64,000 nt of DNA, taken from Candidatus Limnocylindria bacterium (GTDB taxonomy: Bacteria; Patescibacteriota; Saccharimonadia; Saccharimonadales; JAGQNK01). Positions within the stretch are counted from its first letter, which is position 1, and each line of letters opens with the position of its first letter. Below the pieces are notes generated by a model, which saw nothing but the letters and a program-made list of their open reading frames with translations, did not search any database and was not told the DNA's origin. This document shows, piece by piece, positions 1-29,538 of the stretch. Where the stretch lies: contig DATHJH010000032.1 in the NCBI GenBank assembly GCA_035489815.1, positions 32,301-96,300 of the forward strand, written 5' to 3'. Position numbers and translations under genes: made by a program.

Positions 1-93
1 AGACATTTATAGCCTTGATGAGATTACAGAGAGAAGTCTATATAAGTTTGCAACTTACATTAACAAGCTGAACAAGGCGGATAAAAGCAAAAA

Positions 94-7282: not shown

Positions 7283-7818
7283 GACAACTCGATCAACAAA
7301 AGTTCTGCGGCTGGTGTGGCGGCATGGTAACTTACCCTTCAAAATGGCAATCAGTCTGTAGCACATGCGGATACAAGCAATACCAAAACCCTTTACCATG
7401 CAGCAGCGCTCTTATTATCTGTGGCGATGAAGTACTAATACTCCAGCGGTCTATAGAACCAGGAAAGGGGAAGTTTGACCTCCCGGGCGGTTTTATGGAC
7501 ATGACAGACAAGTCCATAGAGGCAGCCGCTTACCGAGAACTGCACGAAGAATTGGGAATAAAACAGCGTATGATAACCCAGGTTACTTATTTTGGATCGG
7601 GCATACAGCCATACGAGTGGCAAGGAACAGAGCTACTCACAGCGCCCTGTTACTTTACCTGCCACATAACCACCAAGGACCGCGCCCGGCTTGTCGTTGA
7701 CCCCAAAGAGGGCTCTCAGGTACGCTGGGTAAGTCGGGCCGACGTACCGACCGTAGACTTTGCCTTTGATTTGGATAAGGAAATGCTTACCAGTTATTTT
7801 AGTAATAAAACACCTTAG
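7279..7818 (+). CDS. NUDIX hydrolase with N-terminal zinc ribbon
   Basis: Nudix box GGFMDMTDKSIEAAAYRELHEELGI. CGWCGG...CSTCG Cys4 ribbon. The start ATG overlaps the upstream stop (ATGA). Confidence 0.8.
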   Translation: MRQLDQQKFCGWCGGMVTYPSKWQSVCSTCGYKQYQNPLPCSSALIICGDEVLILQRSIEPGKGKFDLPGGFMDMTDKSIEAAAYRELHEELGIKQRMITQVTYFGSGIQPYEWQGTELLTAPCYFTCHITTKDRARLVVDPKEGSQVRWVSRADVPTVDFAFDLDKEMLTSYFSNKTP

Positions 7819-16321: not shown

Positions 16322-18883
16322 ATGAAATACACCCTAGTCCCCCATCTCCCATACCTTGACAGGTCTGCCCTCCCAGAAGCAGTGCCAAACAGCCCGGCTG
16401 CCCTGAAACGTAGCTATGGCTACGTTTCAGGCACATCCAATCTGCCTGGCACTGCTTCTGGAAAGGCATCTAGCCGTCAGAGTATGGGAGATGGGGGACT
16501 AGGCAAACAGCAAGTAAAAAAGCGACTCGTGCCCACCATTGCTGCTGTTTTTGTCCTTGGTATCCTACTCCCGGCTGTTCTGCCCTCCCAGAACACAGAT
16601 GCGCTGAGCGGTTCGCAGTTTAATGCCGGACGAATCATCGATGATGCGGTGTTCTACAACAAAAACTCTATGTCCGCCAGCCAGATCCAAAGCTTCCTAA
16701 ACAGTAAGGTCCCGACTTGTGAAACCCACCATGCCAAATCTTCCAGCAGTAACGATTCCGGGCCGCCGTATAAATGCCTCAAGGACTATCGTCAAAATAC
16801 CGCCAACATTGCTCCGGACAGCGGCCTGTGTGGCGGCTACACCGGCAGAAGCAACGAAACAGCCGCCCAGATCATCTACCACGTCGCCCAAAGCTGCGGC
16901 ATAAGCCCTAAGGTCATACTGGTCATGCTCCAAAAAGAGCAAGGGCTGGTAACCGATACATGGCCATGGGACATTCAATACCGAAAGGCCATGGGCGCTT
17001 TCTGCCCGGACTCCGCCCCGTGCGATCCGGCTTATGCTGGATTCTTTTACCAGGTATACTACGGTGCTCATCGGTTCAAGGTCTATGCCGCCAACCCGGG
17101 TAGTTTCAACTACCGGGCCGGCCGCAATAACTCCATCCTCTGGAATCCCAAGACATCCTGCGGAAGGTCAACTGTGTACATCCAGAACCAGGCAACCGCC
17201 AGCCTCTACATTTATACCCCGTACCGCCCCAACCAGGCCGCCCTCAATAACCTGGGCGGCACCGGAGACAGCTGCAGCTCCTACGGCAATCGCAACTTCT
17301 GGGTATTCTATAACCAGTGGTTTGGCCCCACCACCGGCAGCCCCCTGTTCAAATTCAGTAATGACGCAACGGTGTATGTACTCGGCGCAAACAACAACTA
17401 CTACCGTATGGAAAATCGTGAAAAACTGGATATATACGGGTTCGGCGACACCATACATAGCGTCAAGACCGTCAGTACCAGCTATGTCTCCGGCCGGAGC
17501 TTTTCAGGCAACCTGCCGCTTATCGCCCGGTTCCAGGGAGATGAGGTCTACATGATTAGTGGCGGCCGGGCTCATCACTTTACCTCCCGGGCGCTGTTAC
17601 AGACATTTGGCTACGACATTGGCCAGGAAGCCCTGCTGCCGGCCGGCATTAAAGAATGGTACCCGGACGCCGAAGCCATGCAAACCACCGTTCGCAGCGC
17701 TAACGGCCCCGCTGTCTGGTCTGTCGAAGGCGGCAAGAAGCGGCACATCATCAATGGCGAGGCCTACCTTTCCGGCAGCCCCGCGTATGCGTCAAGGCCT
17801 GAGGTCACCTTATGGGAAGCCGTTATGGCGCCGATCGAAAACGGCCCGCCGATTCTGACGGCCAACAAGCTGTTAAAACGGACCGACCAAAACACTTACA
17901 TTTTCTGGGATGGCACCAAACGGCAGGAAATTTCTGCCAGAGTGGCCGCAGAGCTGCATCTGCCCCTCATCTATGCCACCAGAGCCTCCATACTCAACCA
18001 GTTACCCGCCGGGGGCACAGACATAGACAAGTATGTAAAAAACGGCGGCGGCGAGCTGTATGTCCTGGACTCGGGCCAAAAGTTCCTTGTGTCGCCCTCT
18101 GACCTCACCCAAATGGGACTTACCTCATCTTCATTCTCACTCGCCCCGGACGGATTCTTTGACTTTGTCCCCACTACTAAAGCTTTTAAACGGCTATTCA
18201 GAATTGGGAGCGACAGCGGCGTCTTCTTAATCAAAAGCGGGCAGCGCTATCACCTCATGAGCCCGGCCGCTGTTTCAGAAAGCGGCTTTGCACTGTCAGA
18301 CGCCATATCCCTGAACGACACATCAGCAAACCTGTTCCCTAATTCCGGAAAAAAGATTATGGCCAAGGGTACATTGTTCAGGATCGGCTCCAGGGATGAG
18401 GTGTTTGTAGTAAACACCGGCTCGTCCAGCCTGCACATTGTGTCTGCCCCTACCCTGAAGGACTACGGCCTGAAAATTGCCAGTACCTTCAGCCTCAACC
18501 CCACCCAGGCATCCGACTACCCAATGTCCGGAAAGCTCCGGCACATTGTGAAAGACGGCTCAAACAACGTCTGGCAGGTACAGAACGGCGCAGAGAAACG
18601 GCCCGTACCCACGCCCATGCAAGACCCCGGCGGCTATAACGTCATTGTTCCGGAATTAGCCGTTCTGGATACCAGCCTCTTTGGCGGATATGCCACTCAA
18701 TCAGACCTGACCAACCTCATACGCGCAGCGGGTGATGCCCGTGTATACAAGGTCGAAAACGGCAAAAAGCACTGGGTAACCAGTCGGGCCGTTTTTGACA
18801 CCAACGGGTTTTCACTCAGTAACGTCACGAACGTCTCCACAGGGTTCCTGAACAGCCTTGCCAGCGGTCCGAACATACACTAG
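16322..18883 (+). CDS. large exported cell-wall-associated protein: putative murein-hydrolase-like N-domain plus about 9 degenerate ~55-aa repeats
   Basis: 853-aa maximal ORF. A more likely start is the ATG at 16484 (MGDGGLGKQQVKKRL + TM), because codons 4-61 are the hairpin element. It carries the motif AAQIIYHVAQSCGISPKVILVMLQKEQGLV. The C-terminal repeats follow the pattern hYhh..G.+h.h.s...h...Gh. Confidence 0.7.
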   Translation: MKYTLVPHLPYLDRSALPEAVPNSPAALKRSYGYVSGTSNLPGTASGKASSRQSMGDGGLGKQQVKKRLVPTIAAVFVLGILLPAVLPSQNTDALSGSQFNAGRIIDDAVFYNKNSMSASQIQSFLNSKVPTCETHHAKSSSSNDSGPPYKCLKDYRQNTANIAPDSGLCGGYTGRSNETAAQIIYHVAQSCGISPKVILVMLQKEQGLVTDTWPWDIQYRKAMGAFCPDSAPCDPAYAGFFYQVYYGAHRFKVYAANPGSFNYRAGRNNSILWNPKTSCGRSTVYIQNQATASLYIYTPYRPNQAALNNLGGTGDSCSSYGNRNFWVFYNQWFGPTTGSPLFKFSNDATVYVLGANNNYYRMENREKLDIYGFGDTIHSVKTVSTSYVSGRSFSGNLPLIARFQGDEVYMISGGRAHHFTSRALLQTFGYDIGQEALLPAGIKEWYPDAEAMQTTVRSANGPAVWSVEGGKKRHIINGEAYLSGSPAYASRPEVTLWEAVMAPIENGPPILTANKLLKRTDQNTYIFWDGTKRQEISARVAAELHLPLIYATRASILNQLPAGGTDIDKYVKNGGGELYVLDSGQKFLVSPSDLTQMGLTSSSFSLAPDGFFDFVPTTKAFKRLFRIGSDSGVFLIKSGQRYHLMSPAAVSESGFALSDAISLNDTSANLFPNSGKKIMAKGTLFRIGSRDEVFVVNTGSSSLHIVSAPTLKDYGLKIASTFSLNPTQASDYPMSGKLRHIVKDGSNNVWQVQNGAEKRPVPTPMQDPGGYNVIVPELAVLDTSLFGGYATQSDLTNLIRAAGDARVYKVENGKKHWVTSRAVFDTNGFSLSNVTNVSTGFLNSLASGPNIH
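16333..16503. repeat. 171-nt triple-nested perfect hairpin element (E)
   Basis: Outer arms are 22/22 perfect (16333-16354 and 16482-16503). The middle stem is 14/14 (16373-16386 and 16448-16461). The inner stem is 12-13 bp (16403-16414 and 16419-16430) with loop TATG. Confidence 0.9.
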
Positions 18884-23862: not shown

Positions 23863-24852
23863 TTAGCACTTATATACCCACGCCACTAGAGGTGCCCCTA
23901 GCCAATAACTTCTATATATTGCAAGGCAGTACCCACGACGAGAGGCTTGGTTGGCAAGAAAAGATACCGTACCTGCGATTGCTGCAGCCTGTGGGAATCT
24001 TGCTGCGCCTAGGGCCGCTGCTGCACCGGAGGTTTCACTAATCCACCTCATGTCGCCTCGATTAAACCAGACTGTTATACCGTGCCATGATCGACTTATG
24101 CGCGGGTCTGCAATAATAGGATATACCACTCCGGGTACATTGTGCTTCACATGTTGGGTTAATGTTTTTCCGTCCGCGGTGAAGTAGGTTTGGATGGCAT
24201 TGCCTTTAGCGTCTTTGGCCCATGGCTTATCAATAGTGAACATAACTTTTTTATTTGCTCCAACGACGACCGCTCCTCCGTCCACTGCGAGCATAATACG
24301 CCCGCCATTCGGCACAGTCACTTTGTAGTCATACTCTGTAGGAGCATTCGGGTTATCTATGACTGTCAGCATGCGTAAGCCGCCGTCTTCTGTTGGCTGG
24401 ATGGCATTGGCAGAGCCATTACCGGAGTCGTAAGTGACTACTCCCGGCGCTGCCTGCTTGGCAAGGGCAGCACTATCTGCACCCGGGAGCTCAATGCTGA
24501 GTTTGTTTTGTCCTTCGGTACCAAAAGTGACACCTCGGTCGGCGTCTTTGGGGATGTCTATGGCTGTGTCATTGGTTGTAGCAGTTAGCGCTGAGTCCGA
24601 ATCACTCTTTGTGGCTACCTGGTCAGAGCTACTCAGGACGCCAGAGACAGTTTGGAGGGCGTTCTTTACCTCTGTGGTAGAGACGTTCTTATTATGGTTC
24701 GTAAGGCCGCGACTTCCAGCCAGAATTGTACCGAGTGGCAGACTGAGGTTGGAAAACGTTGCCGCTACTAGAGACAGCGCAACGAGCCTTAGTTTGTTTT
24801 GTTTTAGGAAGTGGATGTTTTGATGTACTAGGAGTTGCCTGAATTGACCCAT
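23863..24852 (-). CDS. hypothetical secreted protein
   Basis: 329 aa with a signal-peptide-like N-terminus (LRLVALSLVAATFSNLSLPLGTILAGS). No recognisable catalytic motif. Low-GC islet. Confidence 0.6.
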   Translation of the reverse strand: MGQFRQLLVHQNIHFLKQNKLRLVALSLVAATFSNLSLPLGTILAGSRGLTNHNKNVSTTEVKNALQTVSGVLSSSDQVATKSDSDSALTATTNDTAIDIPKDADRGVTFGTEGQNKLSIELPGADSAALAKQAAPGVVTYDSGNGSANAIQPTEDGGLRMLTVIDNPNAPTEYDYKVTVPNGGRIMLAVDGGAVVVGANKKVMFTIDKPWAKDAKGNAIQTYFTADGKTLTQHVKHNVPGVVYPIIADPRISRSWHGITVWFNRGDMRWISETSGAAAALGAARFPQAAAIAGTVSFLANQASRRGYCLAIYRSYWLGAPLVAWVYKC

Positions 24853-24974
24853 GCTCTGTATTCCCCTCGTTGTTTTAATTCACAAAGGAAATAGTACTTC
24901 ATGTATATATGCTTAACAATATGTAAGACTGTTTATTTTAGTGTGGTTTTGACAACTGGGGCCAACACTTCAAA

Positions 24975-25022
24975 AAACTGTACTTTTATTTTGTCCGGCC
25001 GGATATAAATGGAGTACAGTTT
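24975..25022. promoter_or_regulatory. imperfect 48-bp palindrome (candidate operator) upstream of the PaaX/Cas2-fold gene
   Basis: AAACTGTACT-N-GTCCGGCCGGAT-N-AGTACAGTTT. It shares its ends and its centre with the perfect palindrome at 25545-25598. Confidence 0.6.
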
Positions 25023-25033
25023 CAGAGGACATC

Positions 25034-25549
25034 ATGAAAAGAAGCAGGAGCACCAAAGATTTACCAAACTCAGCCCTGGCCTATGTACTGGAGGCCTTGA
25101 TCCCTTACTCTGATGCGAACGTAAAGCTAGCTTTCAAGCCGCACCTATTCTTTAACGACCTTGAGAACATTGCCCGGCAAAAGCAAAGCCTCAGCTACCG
25201 TCGTCAAACTTTACGGAATGCTTTTTACCACGCCAAGCGTAGTGGATTTATTGAGTTTAGTAAGTCTGGTGGCCCACGCCTTACGCGCAAAGGGGAAGCG
25301 TACTTAAAGCCCTATGAGCCAAGCAAGCTTGGCGACTCCGCACGACTCATGGTTATATTTGATATCCCGGAAGAACAGCGAGCCAAGCGTCGCTACCTAA
25401 GGCTCATACTTAGACAGTTAAAATTCAAAATGGTTCAGCAAAGTGTTTGGATAAGTAAGTACGATTGCAAAACGATTCTTCATGATGAGATCGAAGCGTA
25501 TGAGCTGCAGGCTTATGTTCAAATATACGAGTGCGTTCGATTATTATAA
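25034..25549 (+). CDS. PaaX-like / Cas2-fold domain DNA-binding protein
   Basis: 171 aa. The C-terminal RLMVIFDIPEEQRAKRRYLRLILRQLKFKMVQQSVWISKYD matches the ferredoxin-like Cas2/PaaX-middle-domain pattern. The N-terminal half is wHTH-like. Confidence 0.6.
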   Translation: MKRSRSTKDLPNSALAYVLEALIPYSDANVKLAFKPHLFFNDLENIARQKQSLSYRRQTLRNAFYHAKRSGFIEFSKSGGPRLTRKGEAYLKPYEPSKLGDSARLMVIFDIPEEQRAKRRYLRLILRQLKFKMVQQSVWISKYDCKTILHDEIEAYELQAYVQIYECVRLL

Positions 25550-25598
25550 CTGTACTCTAAAAATGTCCGGCCGGACATTTTTAGAGTACAGTTATAAG
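25545..25598. terminator. perfect 54-bp palindrome; candidate bidirectional intrinsic terminator and/or operator
   Basis: 27/27 perfect arms centred on GTCCGG|CCGGAC, flanked by A5/T5 runs. It contains the stop codon of the ORF at 25034-25549 and lies between convergent genes. Confidence 0.7.
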
Positions 25599-25630: not shown

Positions 25631-26548
25631 CTAGAGGCGCTTGCGGACTTGGCGGGCGAGGGCGTGGACTTTTGGGTTGCTTTTGATCAGCTTTTTAATA
25701 ACAGACCTGGCATCTAGTGATGGGCGGATGCCAGCTTCTTGTTCCAGGACTTGCTCGCGGGGGATTGCTGCGGCCATGTAGTCGCGGACGGACTGCCGGT
25801 ACTTGGGGTAGCGTTCCCACAGAATCTTATTATTTGCCTCCAACAGCTTGGACTTGACCTCTGGCGTAAAGCTGCGGGCCTCCAGGTGGAAGACATAGGC
25901 ACGGTTGGCCAGCACGCTTTTGTAGCCGTGTTTGGCGATCCGCATGCAAAAGTCCACTTCCTCGCCATACCCCTTGCCAAAAGCCTTATCAAACAAGCCG
26001 TACTGTTTTATTAATTTGCGGCGGATGAGCATGCAAAAGCCGTGGGCTACCGGCACTACCTGGTAGCGCGGCAAAAGCGGCTTGATCTTTTGGTACAGCT
26101 GGTAGGACTTGGGCGCAGCAACCCCCTTCTGGACCGCCGCAGACAGGGGAATGGTAGCAATCGTGGCATTGTTAGAACGCGGCGAAACTGCTCCGTGCCT
26201 GGGAGTGGCATACAGCACCGCCAACATTTCGTCCAAAAACCCGGCCGTGACCTTTGTGTCGCTATTGAGCAGCAGAATGTCGTTATTCGTTTTTTCAAGC
26301 GTAAGAACCGCATGATTACAATTGCCGACAAAGCCGAGGTTCTTTTTGTTCCGGTGGTAGGTAAAACCCGGCACATCCTTGATTGCCGCCTGAATATTAC
26401 GCTCTATCAGCTCCGCCTCCGGCCCGCAGTCATTGACCAGCATAACCGGGTGCAGCGTCGTGTCCACATGTTCTTTCAACGAACTTATGCATTCGCTCAA
26501 GGACGGCCAATCGCCGTAAACCGGGATAATGATCGTGACGGTATTCAT
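25631..26548 (-). CDS. GT2 family glycosyltransferase
   Basis: 305 aa. VTIIIPVYGDWPSL, LVNDCGPE, LLNSDT (DxD-like). Confidence 0.8.
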   Translation of the reverse strand: MNTVTIIIPVYGDWPSLSECISSLKEHVDTTLHPVMLVNDCGPEAELIERNIQAAIKDVPGFTYHRNKKNLGFVGNCNHAVLTLEKTNNDILLLNSDTKVTAGFLDEMLAVLYATPRHGAVSPRSNNATIATIPLSAAVQKGVAAPKSYQLYQKIKPLLPRYQVVPVAHGFCMLIRRKLIKQYGLFDKAFGKGYGEEVDFCMRIAKHGYKSVLANRAYVFHLEARSFTPEVKSKLLEANNKILWERYPKYRQSVRDYMAAAIPREQVLEQEAGIRPSLDARSVIKKLIKSNPKVHALARQVRKRL

Positions 26549-28707: not shown

Positions 28708-29538
28708 ATGAAGAAATCAATCACTAAAATAGTCGTTCAGGACACAAACATTGCGCTGCAAGTAGTAGATGGCGAAGATTATATCTGCCTGACTGACATG
28801 GCCAAAAGTATGGGCGGCCCTGCCCTTGTGGAAAAGTGGTTCCGGAATAAAAACACTCTGGAATTCTTAGGCACATGGGAGATTATCCACAACCCTCATT
28901 TTAAAACCCCCGAATTCGGGGGAATTAGAAGTCAAGCCGGTAGTCATAGATTTCTCCTATCAGCGAAACAATGGATTGAAACAACCGCCGCTATAGGCGT
29001 GAGAGCGCAAGCAGGTCGCTACGGAGGCACATACGCCCACAAAGATATCGCTTTTGAATTTGGATCTTGGCTGAGCCCTGAATTCAAGCTTTATCTGATA
29101 AAGGAATTCCAACGGCTCAAGGAAGCAGAGGCGGAACAGGAGCAGTGGAACTACCAACGCTTTCTAACAAAAGTAAACTGGCGGCTACAAACCAGTGCAG
29201 TACAACAAACACTTATACCGATATCATCCTTGCCGATAGGAAAACATGGCATTATTTATGCTAGCGAAGCAGAGTTGTTGAACCTAGCATTATTCGGGCA
29301 AACGTCTAAGGAGTGGAGGAAGCAAAATCCCGCCCTCGTCAAATCCGGCAATATACGGGATCAGGCTAGTATTGATCAGCTCACGGTTTTATCTAATCTT
29401 GAAAGTATCAATTCAATGCTAATTAGCCAAGGTATGGATAAGGCCGAGCGGTTTGAGAAGTTGCGTATGGAGGCAGTAAGGCAGCTCCAAGCAATCGTAG
29501 GCGCCAATCTGAAGCTTATGCCTAGCGATGACAAGTAG
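28708..29538 (+). CDS. KilA-N domain-containing protein
   Basis: 276 aa. The pattern YICLTDMAK...WFRNKNTLEFLGTWE...GGTYAHKDIAFEFGSWLSPEFKLYLIKEF is typical of KilA-N DNA-binding proteins. It is a low-GC single-gene islet on the opposite strand to its neighbours. Confidence 0.8.
   Translation: MKKSITKIVVQDTNIALQVVDGEDYICLTDMAKSMGGPALVEKWFRNKNTLEFLGTWEIIHNPHFKTPEFGGIRSQAGSHRFLLSAKQWIETTAAIGVRAQAGRYGGTYAHKDIAFEFGSWLSPEFKLYLIKEFQRLKEAEAEQEQWNYQRFLTKVNWRLQTSAVQQTLIPISSLPIGKHGIIYASEAELLNLALFGQTSKEWRKQNPALVKSGNIRDQASIDQLTVLSNLESINSMLISQGMDKAERFEKLRMEAVRQLQAIVGANLKLMPSDDK

Follow-up and report, generated by a model that had tools for sequence, protein, structure and literature searches.

A short PaaX/Cas2-fold gene bracketed by two palindromic putative operators in Saccharibacteria

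PaaX, the phenylacetyl-CoA-responsive repressor of E. coli and Pseudomonas, has a published operator of two inverted hexamers 27 bp apart (TGATTC-N27-GAATCA) and shuts its own promoter by excluding RNA polymerase (PMC9493321). Here we describe a short gene of related fold, mini-PaaX, in a 64-kb stretch of contig DATHJH010000032.1 (positions 32,301 to 96,300; hereafter the window). The gene lies between two related long palindromes, an upstream copy near its start (copy U) and a downstream copy at its stop codon (copy D). The outer half-sites AACTGTACT and AGTACAGTT stand 28 nt apart in the window and the candidate site holds a -10-like box. This likeness to the spacing of the PaaX operator supports the reading of the palindromes as predicted operators. 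With moderate confidence, we interpret the locus as a minimal PaaX-type autorepressor bracketed by two palindromic operators whose symmetry makes the gene invertible and excisable. We infer that mini-PaaX binds the palindromes and represses. The architecture of a gene bracketed by palindromes is widespread and undescribed; our literature searches found no earlier description of the mini-PaaX family or of the palindrome-bracketed layout.

A short gene between two related palindromes

The mini-PaaX gene (25034-25549, plus strand; 171 aa) was characterized by a Pfam match and an AlphaFold model. A Shine-Dalgarno-like AGAGGA, read from the sequence, stands 4 nt 5' of its ATG (25024-25029, plus strand). 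Copy U (24975-25022; both palindromes are listed without strand) pairs at 18 of 24 arm positions, with arms at 24975-24998 and 24999-25022. Copy D (25544-25597) is a perfect 54-mer whose arms, 25544-25570 and 25571-25597, are complementary at 27 of 27 positions with zero loop. The initial annotation had recognized the perfect 54-mer but placed it one base too high, at 25545-25598. It was right that the stop codon lies inside this copy: the TAA occupies 25547-25549, and the open reading frame ends at 25549. The two copies are 78% identical across 46 nt (24976-25021 versus 25548-25593), with a start-to-start spacing of 572. Both contain AACTGTACT, GTCCGGCCGGA and AGTACAGTT, in agreement with the half-sites and centre that had been proposed to be shared. 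The centre of the window's palindromes is CCGGCCGG.

The palindrome pair far exceeds chance. AACTGTACT occurs 5 times in the window on both strands against 0.35 expected, and 4 of the 5 occurrences fall within copies U and D; the 12-mer centre GTCCGGCCGGAC occurs once. No third site was found in the 64 kb, the next-best candidates sharing 20-21 of 36 positions compared with 30-36 for copies U and D. One further palindrome of comparable score, the second-best of the window, lies at 16402-16431 (CCTGAAACGTAGCTATGGCTACGTTTCAGG) and is of a design unlike that of the cassette palindromes. Rfam and tRNA scans of the window were empty.

To describe the family, we assembled 80 homolog loci (labelled L, their proteins P) from species-representative genomes, scanned both gene flanks for palindromes and took the best palindromic centre on either side of each homolog. 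About 40 of the 50 Saccharibacteria loci have a promoter-overlapping palindrome and a second copy abutting the stop codon. On the stop side, 31 of 51 loci have a palindrome in which 15 or more of 20 arm positions pair; in 820 control windows, the 99th percentile is 14. Within loci of 4-8 kb, long zero-loop palindromes occurred almost exclusively beside the mini-PaaX gene. In the 40 loci with clear pairs, the upstream centre is mostly 20-32 nt 5' of the predicted start, the centre of copy D is 16-25 nt 3' of the stop in 25 loci, and the median centre-to-centre distance is 541.5 nt. The family consensus, TTTTGTCCGA / TCGGACAAAA, has a conserved CG(AT/GC)CG centre and locus-specific outer arms, variable around positions 12-19 from the centre. 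The same bracket is found in distant homologs from Harrisonbacteria, Minisyncoccia, Uhrbacteria and unclassified Patescibacteria, with centres CGATCG, CGGCCG, GCGATCGC or GCGGCCGC. Note that L070 has a third palindrome (7576-7615, 40 nt) with a CGATCG centre and other arms, 3.3 kb from the cassette of that locus and with no mini-PaaX gene near it; it may be a stand-alone site of another paralog.

The upstream copies overlap promoter-like sequence. In the window, a -10-like TATAAA read from the sequence (25004-25009, plus strand) lies in the right arm of copy U, at the point of departure from the perfect palindrome, where copy D has CATTTT. Across the family, the right arm of 29 of 40 upstream copies contains a TATAAT-like hexamer (at least 5 of 6 positions; 16 of these perfect) at offsets of centre+15..18 or centre+6..8, the window belonging to the latter class. 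Such hexamers were found in 13 of 40 downstream copies, at scattered offsets. The downstream copy is the more perfect palindrome in 22 loci and the upstream copy in 9, and we attribute the lower perfection of copy U to the -10 box in its right arm. On these family statistics, the predicted promoter of the gene is assigned to copy U. Two promoter-like scan matches at about 25518-25569 were set aside as chance level; the scan called neither palindrome as a promoter or terminator.

The two copies of a locus also match each other. Over 48 nt, upstream and downstream copies are 74% identical within a locus and 47% between loci, and in 30 of 38 loci the best match of the upstream copy is its own downstream copy. 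For 17 orthologous locus pairs, with gene DNA identity averaging 0.61, within-locus identity (0.85 and 0.77) is above that between orthologous upstream copies (0.72) or orthologous downstream copies (0.65). Thus, the two copies evolve in concert. Paralogs in one assembly (L003, L007 and L013) have differing arms. In a comparison of L045 with L051, protein identity is lowest in the winged-helix segment (40%, versus 69% in the Cas2-like domain), and the core and arms of the putative operators have changed too. Of the two readings offered by the initial annotation, that of a shared protein-binding site is supported, as a putative one, by the matching locus-specific arms, the -10 box in the upstream copy and stand-alone sites near other genes (see below).

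The protein starts with conserved helices, followed by a predicted winged helix (residues ~36-91) and then by a Cas2-like domain (~103-168). Residues 105-167 match Pfam PaaX_M (PF20803; E 5.7e-16, 58.8 bits, cut-off 24), and two Cas2 models are barely over their cut-offs (PF09827, 24.0 bits against 23.8; TIGR01573, 25.4 bits against 24.5). The Pfam model of the PaaX N terminus gave no match at E <= 0.01. The AlphaFold model, built from 33 homologs (mean confidence score pLDDT 83.8), shows helices at the N terminus, then a helix-wing unit and a domain of beta-alpha-beta-beta-alpha-beta order; the topology of its N-terminal part is helix-helix-wing. Its best matches among solved folds are Rv0674 (3kfw) and E. 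coli PaaX (8a39), aligned along its entire length with 170-189 alignment columns and template-modelling (TM) scores of 0.46-0.48, followed by many Cas2 chains at a root-mean-square deviation of about 3 A. With hhalign, residues 57-167 matched E. coli PaaX weakly (E 0.027). The PaaX_C effector domain is absent, mini-PaaX stopping at residue 171 right after the Cas2-like domain. Asp110 is invariant in the family and aligns with the catalytic Asp of Cas2 (YD[IV] of the Cas2 chains). The Cas2 signature FDIPE..R..R..F.QVQ.SVW is retained in the family, whereas in E. coli PaaX it is reduced to the Asp.

In a profile search, 1,628 clusters (50% identity) reached E <= 1e-10. The best matches are nearly all 155-225 aa long, and the short form is therefore a family of its own. 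Mini-PaaX genes are stand-alone single genes, often with 2-3 paralogs per genome. All protein relatives are from Saccharibacteria or other Patescibacteria, though NCBI labels the exact protein Limnocylindria. Because these relatives and the syntenic contigs are all Saccharibacteria or Patescibacteria, the metagenome-assembled genome labelled 'Candidatus Limnocylindria bacterium' (Chloroflexota) is probably mislabelled or contaminated. An origin of the gene in a phage or defence system was considered and dropped: there were no relatives on viral contigs, no PHROG match, and only weak Cas2 matches in PADLOC.

Empty site, inversions and stand-alone palindromes

The initial annotation had also suggested that the palindromes mark the boundaries of a single-gene cassette and proposed a comparison with related genomes for gain or loss. 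This comparison yielded an empty site, inversions and a swapped or fast-diverged module, in line with the suggestion. The empty site is in L104 (sister-sample copy L110), a contig whose synteny with the window extends beyond 10 kb (70-83% identity). It has one palindrome and no gene, and each side of this palindrome is joined to the flank that borders the cassette on that side in the window. This palindrome is chimeric: its T-rich left spacer is as in copy U, and its right spacer matches that of copy D at 8 of 9 positions, the expected product of a crossover in the centre.

Gene-order maps revealed four independent, clean single-gene inversions in which mini-PaaX alone is flipped between conserved neighbours: L011 versus L006/L022; L044 versus L008/L010; L030 versus L013; and L038/L046/L047 versus L025/L032/L035. 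The intergenic gaps in L011 are 64 and 60 nt and are largely filled by the palindromes. The flanks of L045 and L051 are 90-97% identical, while an island between them has diverged to 44-76% (protein 56%). This island begins ~20 nt before the left end of the upstream palindrome and ends ~75 nt past the right end of the downstream palindrome, and is consistent with either a swapped or a fast-diverged module. The inversions at palindromes, the syntenic one-palindrome empty site and the divergence island bounded near the palindromes support the single-gene cassette reading. No locus had a second mini-PaaX copy.

L001 is 100% identical to the window over the cassette and the upstream spacer. Its gene for a homolog of the neighbouring 329-aa protein resembles another paralog (85%) more closely than it does the gene of the window (72.5%), and the body of this gene is 58-74% identical between the two strains that share the identical adjacent cassette. 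The boundary of identity falls inside the neighbouring gene and not at a palindrome, and we therefore dismissed this case as clean evidence for palindrome-bounded transfer. The end of the L001 contig at the 54-mer was likewise rejected as an inversion junction, being a same-strand fold-back. Here (1170-1236) the MEGAHIT contig folds back after the 54-mer into the reverse complement of the 3' end of the gene. This is probably a palindrome-caused assembly or library artefact, and a warning for the binning of such loci.

One alternative would make the cassette self-mobilizing. The Cas2-fold protein would be a sequence-specific nuclease, or a recombination factor, with the conserved CG(AT/GC)CG core of the palindromes as its point of cutting or pairing, so that the gene is excised, inverted and re-inserted at other palindromes serving as landing pads rather than operators. 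The four palindrome-bounded inversions, the crossover placed in the core by the empty-site palindrome, the conservation of the core over phyla of the candidate phyla radiation (CPR) and the retained Cas2 signature residues, including the Asp at the catalytic position, are all compatible with such an activity. So are close cassettes in different contexts (the window versus L111; the paralogs L007 and L013 of one genome, which share no flanks), the identical cassette beside a different 329-like gene in L001 and the heterogeneous functions of genes beside stand-alone sites. However, most homolog pairs with at least 55% identity share their flanking genes, with exceptions including L007/L013, and inheritance is mainly vertical. 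Orientation polymorphism within species was not seen, context and orientation being the same in 10 contigs each for P0010 and P0004. From the shared flanks and the constant context we conclude that the cassette is mostly vertical, with occasional recombination at the palindromes. In addition, the paralogs within one genome are old and differ in their arms, the palindromes are low in copy number, the protein has no known recombinase fold, and the promoter box inside the upstream copy indicates a regulatory site. RecA recombination or replication slippage on palindromic repeats of 40-54 bp would suffice for rare events. We consider this alternative unlikely. It appears slightly less likely still that mini-PaaX, besides being a repressor, carries its own gene from one palindrome copy to another as a palindrome-specific nuclease or recombination factor of Cas2 fold.

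We next consider palindromes without an adjacent mini-PaaX gene; the initial annotation had proposed a genome search for further sites. The window holds none, but related metagenome contigs do. A metagenome scan with the window's half-site and core as the query returned 15 stretches, 12 of them with a full palindrome and 3 apparent chance matches. L111 has a mini-PaaX gene that is 73% identical and whose downstream palindrome is perfect; its context differs from that in the window, with a bactofilin gene beside it. The other 11 stretches (L103-L110, L112, L114 and L115) have a full palindrome and no adjacent mini-PaaX gene; two pairs among them are the same locus from sister samples, leaving 9 distinct stand-alone sites. 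These are mostly 50-135 nt 5' of start codons, and some lie between divergent genes. Four are located upstream of homologs of the 329-aa protein, at equal distance and adjoined by the same conserved blocks.

The 329-aa gene of the window (23863-24852, minus strand) is divergent from mini-PaaX, and copy U lies 123 nt upstream of it. Its product has an N-terminal hydrophobic segment and matches neither Pfam nor PHROG. Related contigs contain five or more diverged copies of this family (e.g. L103-L106), each with the same palindrome 105-135 nt upstream and with the conserved blocks CAGTTGTCAAAAC and CTTACATATTGTGAA. In the window, the conserved block GTTTTGACAACTG (24946-24958, listed without strand) lies between copy U and the 329-aa gene and is also found at the stand-alone sites of the family. 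It is probably part of the promoter of the 329-aa gene; note that no sigma-70 promoter for this gene could be placed convincingly in the block. From this arrangement, the 329-aa gene is a candidate co-regulated target of mini-PaaX.

The neighbours of mini-PaaX vary from homolog locus to homolog locus. Near neighbours are glycosyltransferases, a methyltransferase, a KilA-N protein and hypotheticals, with no paa genes among them. The KilA-N domain protein (28708-29538, plus strand) lies beside the methyltransferase and glycosyltransferases; it is kept in the syntenic contig L104 and is therefore no recent insertion. A 20-nt inverted repeat (25655-25674 / 25947-25966, 90% complementary) is located within the convergent family-2 glycosyltransferase gene. 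No CRISPR-like array or tandem repeats were found anywhere in the window, and Cas1 was not among the seven open reading frames around the gene, to which the domain scan was limited. No recombinase or invertase is present among the neighbours, and between the palindromes there are only PaaX_M and Cas2 domains and no HUH/Y1 transposase domain.

The downstream copy as an RNA element

As RNA, copy D forms a 25-bp stem (-42.4 kcal/mol, z = -8.4) at a site between convergent genes, and its inner GC stem is followed by T5 in the window. Copy U folds weakly (z = -2.6). Across loci, arm mismatches in the downstream copies are G.T in 50 cases versus A.C in 24, compared with 34 versus 31 in the upstream copies; the p value of 0.003 for this bias is optimistic, the orthologs not being independent. 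The bias suggests an RNA-level constraint on the sense strand of the downstream copies. We infer that copy D is a second putative operator that doubles as a 3' hairpin. It may act through looping, as an insulator, or as a roadblock to transcription where the gene stops.

The initial annotation had gone further and suggested that copy D could terminate transcription in both directions. The hairpin energy and the G.T bias agree with this, but the family consensus has no T-run after the stem, only A's, and several loci have separate terminators. Hairpins with a GC stem are found shortly 3' of the downstream palindrome in L045 (4531-4557), L051 (4538-4559), L024 (4374-4400) and L019 (4562-4587). 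In L045 and L024 a T-run comes after the hairpin, and the L045/L051 hairpin belongs to the divergent island and is not the same in both genomes.

These properties bear on a second alternative, in which both palindromes would act only as transcript hairpins, a 5' stabilizer and a 3' terminator or stabilizer, kept alike by gene conversion and recognized by no protein. The 3' hairpin would be bidirectional and serve the convergent neighbour too. Whereas the stable fold of copy D, its position between convergent genes, the T5 run and the mismatch bias fit such a role, the upstream copy does not: because the -10 box is inside it, most of this copy is untranscribed, and it has neither a wobble bias nor a strong fold. 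Moreover, the consensus TTTTGTCCGA / TCGGACAAAA has A's and not U's after the stem, canonical terminators exist separately 3' of the downstream copy in the four loci above, stand-alone copies occur upstream of genes, and a stem would need neither the promoter-side arm sequence nor the conserved centre. We regard an explanation by RNA structure alone as improbable.

Selfish palindromic repeats of the repetitive extragenic palindromic (REP) or miniature inverted-repeat transposable element (MITE) kind, lying next to the gene by chance and unrelated to its product, would account for the stand-alone intergenic copies in related genomes and for contigs that break or fold back at the palindrome, but they are a very remote prospect given two copies only in 64 kb, a handful in the metagenome scan, and a gene-palindrome association that holds across CPR phyla with fixed positions at start and stop and with arms that change with the protein.

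Several observations nevertheless weigh against the favoured reading of an autorepressor between two operators. The consensus promoter scan called no promoter in copy U, the tool's miss being due to a weak -35 match. P0004 (loci L002/L092) has a weak upstream palindrome and no clear downstream copy, and thus the bracket can be lost. In these loci, a GGDEF gene ends 1 nt after the stop codon of mini-PaaX. Gene conversion, and not protein recognition, could maintain the similarity of copies U and D, and part of the conservation of copy D may be RNA-level, given the mismatch bias. The retained Cas2 signature with the Asp at the catalytic position may point to an enzymatic role. Finally, a third site is lacking within the 64-kb window, and genes other than the 329-aa homologs beside stand-alone sites are heterogeneous (Mur ligase, NUDIX, HhH-GPD glycosylase, FtsH 3' end).

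Proposed mechanism and comparison with known systems

For the autorepressor reading, we propose the following mechanism. By analogy with PaaX and Cas2, mini-PaaX would be a minimal PaaX-type repressor that uses its winged helix for DNA binding and its Cas2-fold domain for dimerization, and the two palindromes would be two copies of its operator. The two-fold symmetry of the protein would match the CG(AT/GC)CG centre. Recognition of the outer arms, which differ from locus to locus and lie ~3 helical turns apart like the half-sites of E. coli PaaX, would fall to the variable winged helix. Protein bound at copy U would exclude RNA polymerase from the -10 box, resulting in negative autoregulation, and copy U would probably also control the divergent 329-aa gene. 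Copy D would be an auxiliary high-affinity operator that loops to copy U or blocks transcription, and, once transcribed, a strong 3' hairpin; its greater perfection would reflect the lack of constraints from a promoter.

Because a palindrome equals its own reverse complement, the two copies are direct and inverted repeats at the same time. Recombination between the copies would either invert the gene or excise it, leaving one palindrome behind. Given this symmetry, no dedicated enzyme would be needed to account for the inversions, the empty site or the module exchange. Repressor and operators would form a self-contained, exchangeable specificity module, subject to repeated events in evolution.

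CPR bacteria, including Saccharibacteria, have tiny genomes with few recognizable regulators, and we found no such regulator-operator pair described for them. The family is large, often with 2-3 paralogs per genome, each with a long, computationally readable site. The site of each paralog is distinctive, and regulons could therefore be predicted straight from genome sequences, even for organisms that do not grow in isolation. The family would also offer many natural, mutually distinct repressor/operator pairs. Symmetric operators around a gene may be a simple route by which a regulatory module can invert, be excised, be exchanged or move. The mini-PaaX sequence, standing between Cas2 and PaaX, bears on the recruitment of the fold of the CRISPR-adaptation nuclease into transcription factors, or the reverse. 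If mini-PaaX were instead a palindrome-moving nuclease, the locus would be a new minimal mobile or invertible gene cassette in CPR bacteria, and its insertion would duplicate a palindromic repeat, much as the CRISPR repeat is duplicated at spacer integration.

The closest described system is PaaX itself (8a39, 3L09; Rv0674, 3kfw), with which mini-PaaX shares the Cas2-like middle domain and, judging from its model, probably the winged helix before it. Occlusion of the own promoter and inverted half-sites ~3 helical turns apart are likewise PaaX features (PMC9493321). In contrast to PaaX, mini-PaaX is roughly half-size and is without the C-terminal ligand-binding domain; it keeps the Cas2 signature, which is largely lost in E. 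coli PaaX. The predicted operator of the window has an extra conserved CG-rich centre, and its two copies bracket the gene. Cas2/VapD proteins resemble mini-PaaX in its C-terminal 65 residues, which match Cas2 models and structures with Asp110 at the position of the catalytic Asp. The duplicated, partly palindromic repeats around the gene formally recall a repeat-spacer-repeat unit. However, the Cas2-like part of mini-PaaX is joined to a predicted DNA-binding domain, no CRISPR array is present in the window, and the 'repeat' is 40-54 bp long, fully palindromic and locus-specific.

In its layout, the locus is reminiscent of the immunity region of lambdoid phages, in which cI lies between OL and OR and the operators loop. 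Here, too, a repressor gene stands between its own predicted operators, with proposed negative autoregulation and exchange of the specificity module (L045/L051). The differences are that mini-PaaX is found off phage (no viral relatives, no PHROG match), that one gene and two single palindromes take the place of tripartite operators, and that the protein fold is unrelated. REP sequences with their associated tyrosine transposases (RAYT), and IS200/IS605 elements, similarly have a gene between palindromic repeats and further intergenic copies elsewhere. In contrast, mini-PaaX has no HUH/Y1 domain, the arms differ between paralogs, and there are few palindromes per genome, judging from the 64-kb window and the contigs, as opposed to hundreds. 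Finally, invertons (Hin/Gin/Fim) share with this locus a segment between inverted repeats that is found in both orientations. Here, however, the repeats are themselves palindromes, no invertase is nearby, and the contigs contain no mixture of orientations within a species. The mini-PaaX gene flips together with its own promoter, and therefore, unlike in invertons, the flip should not switch expression.

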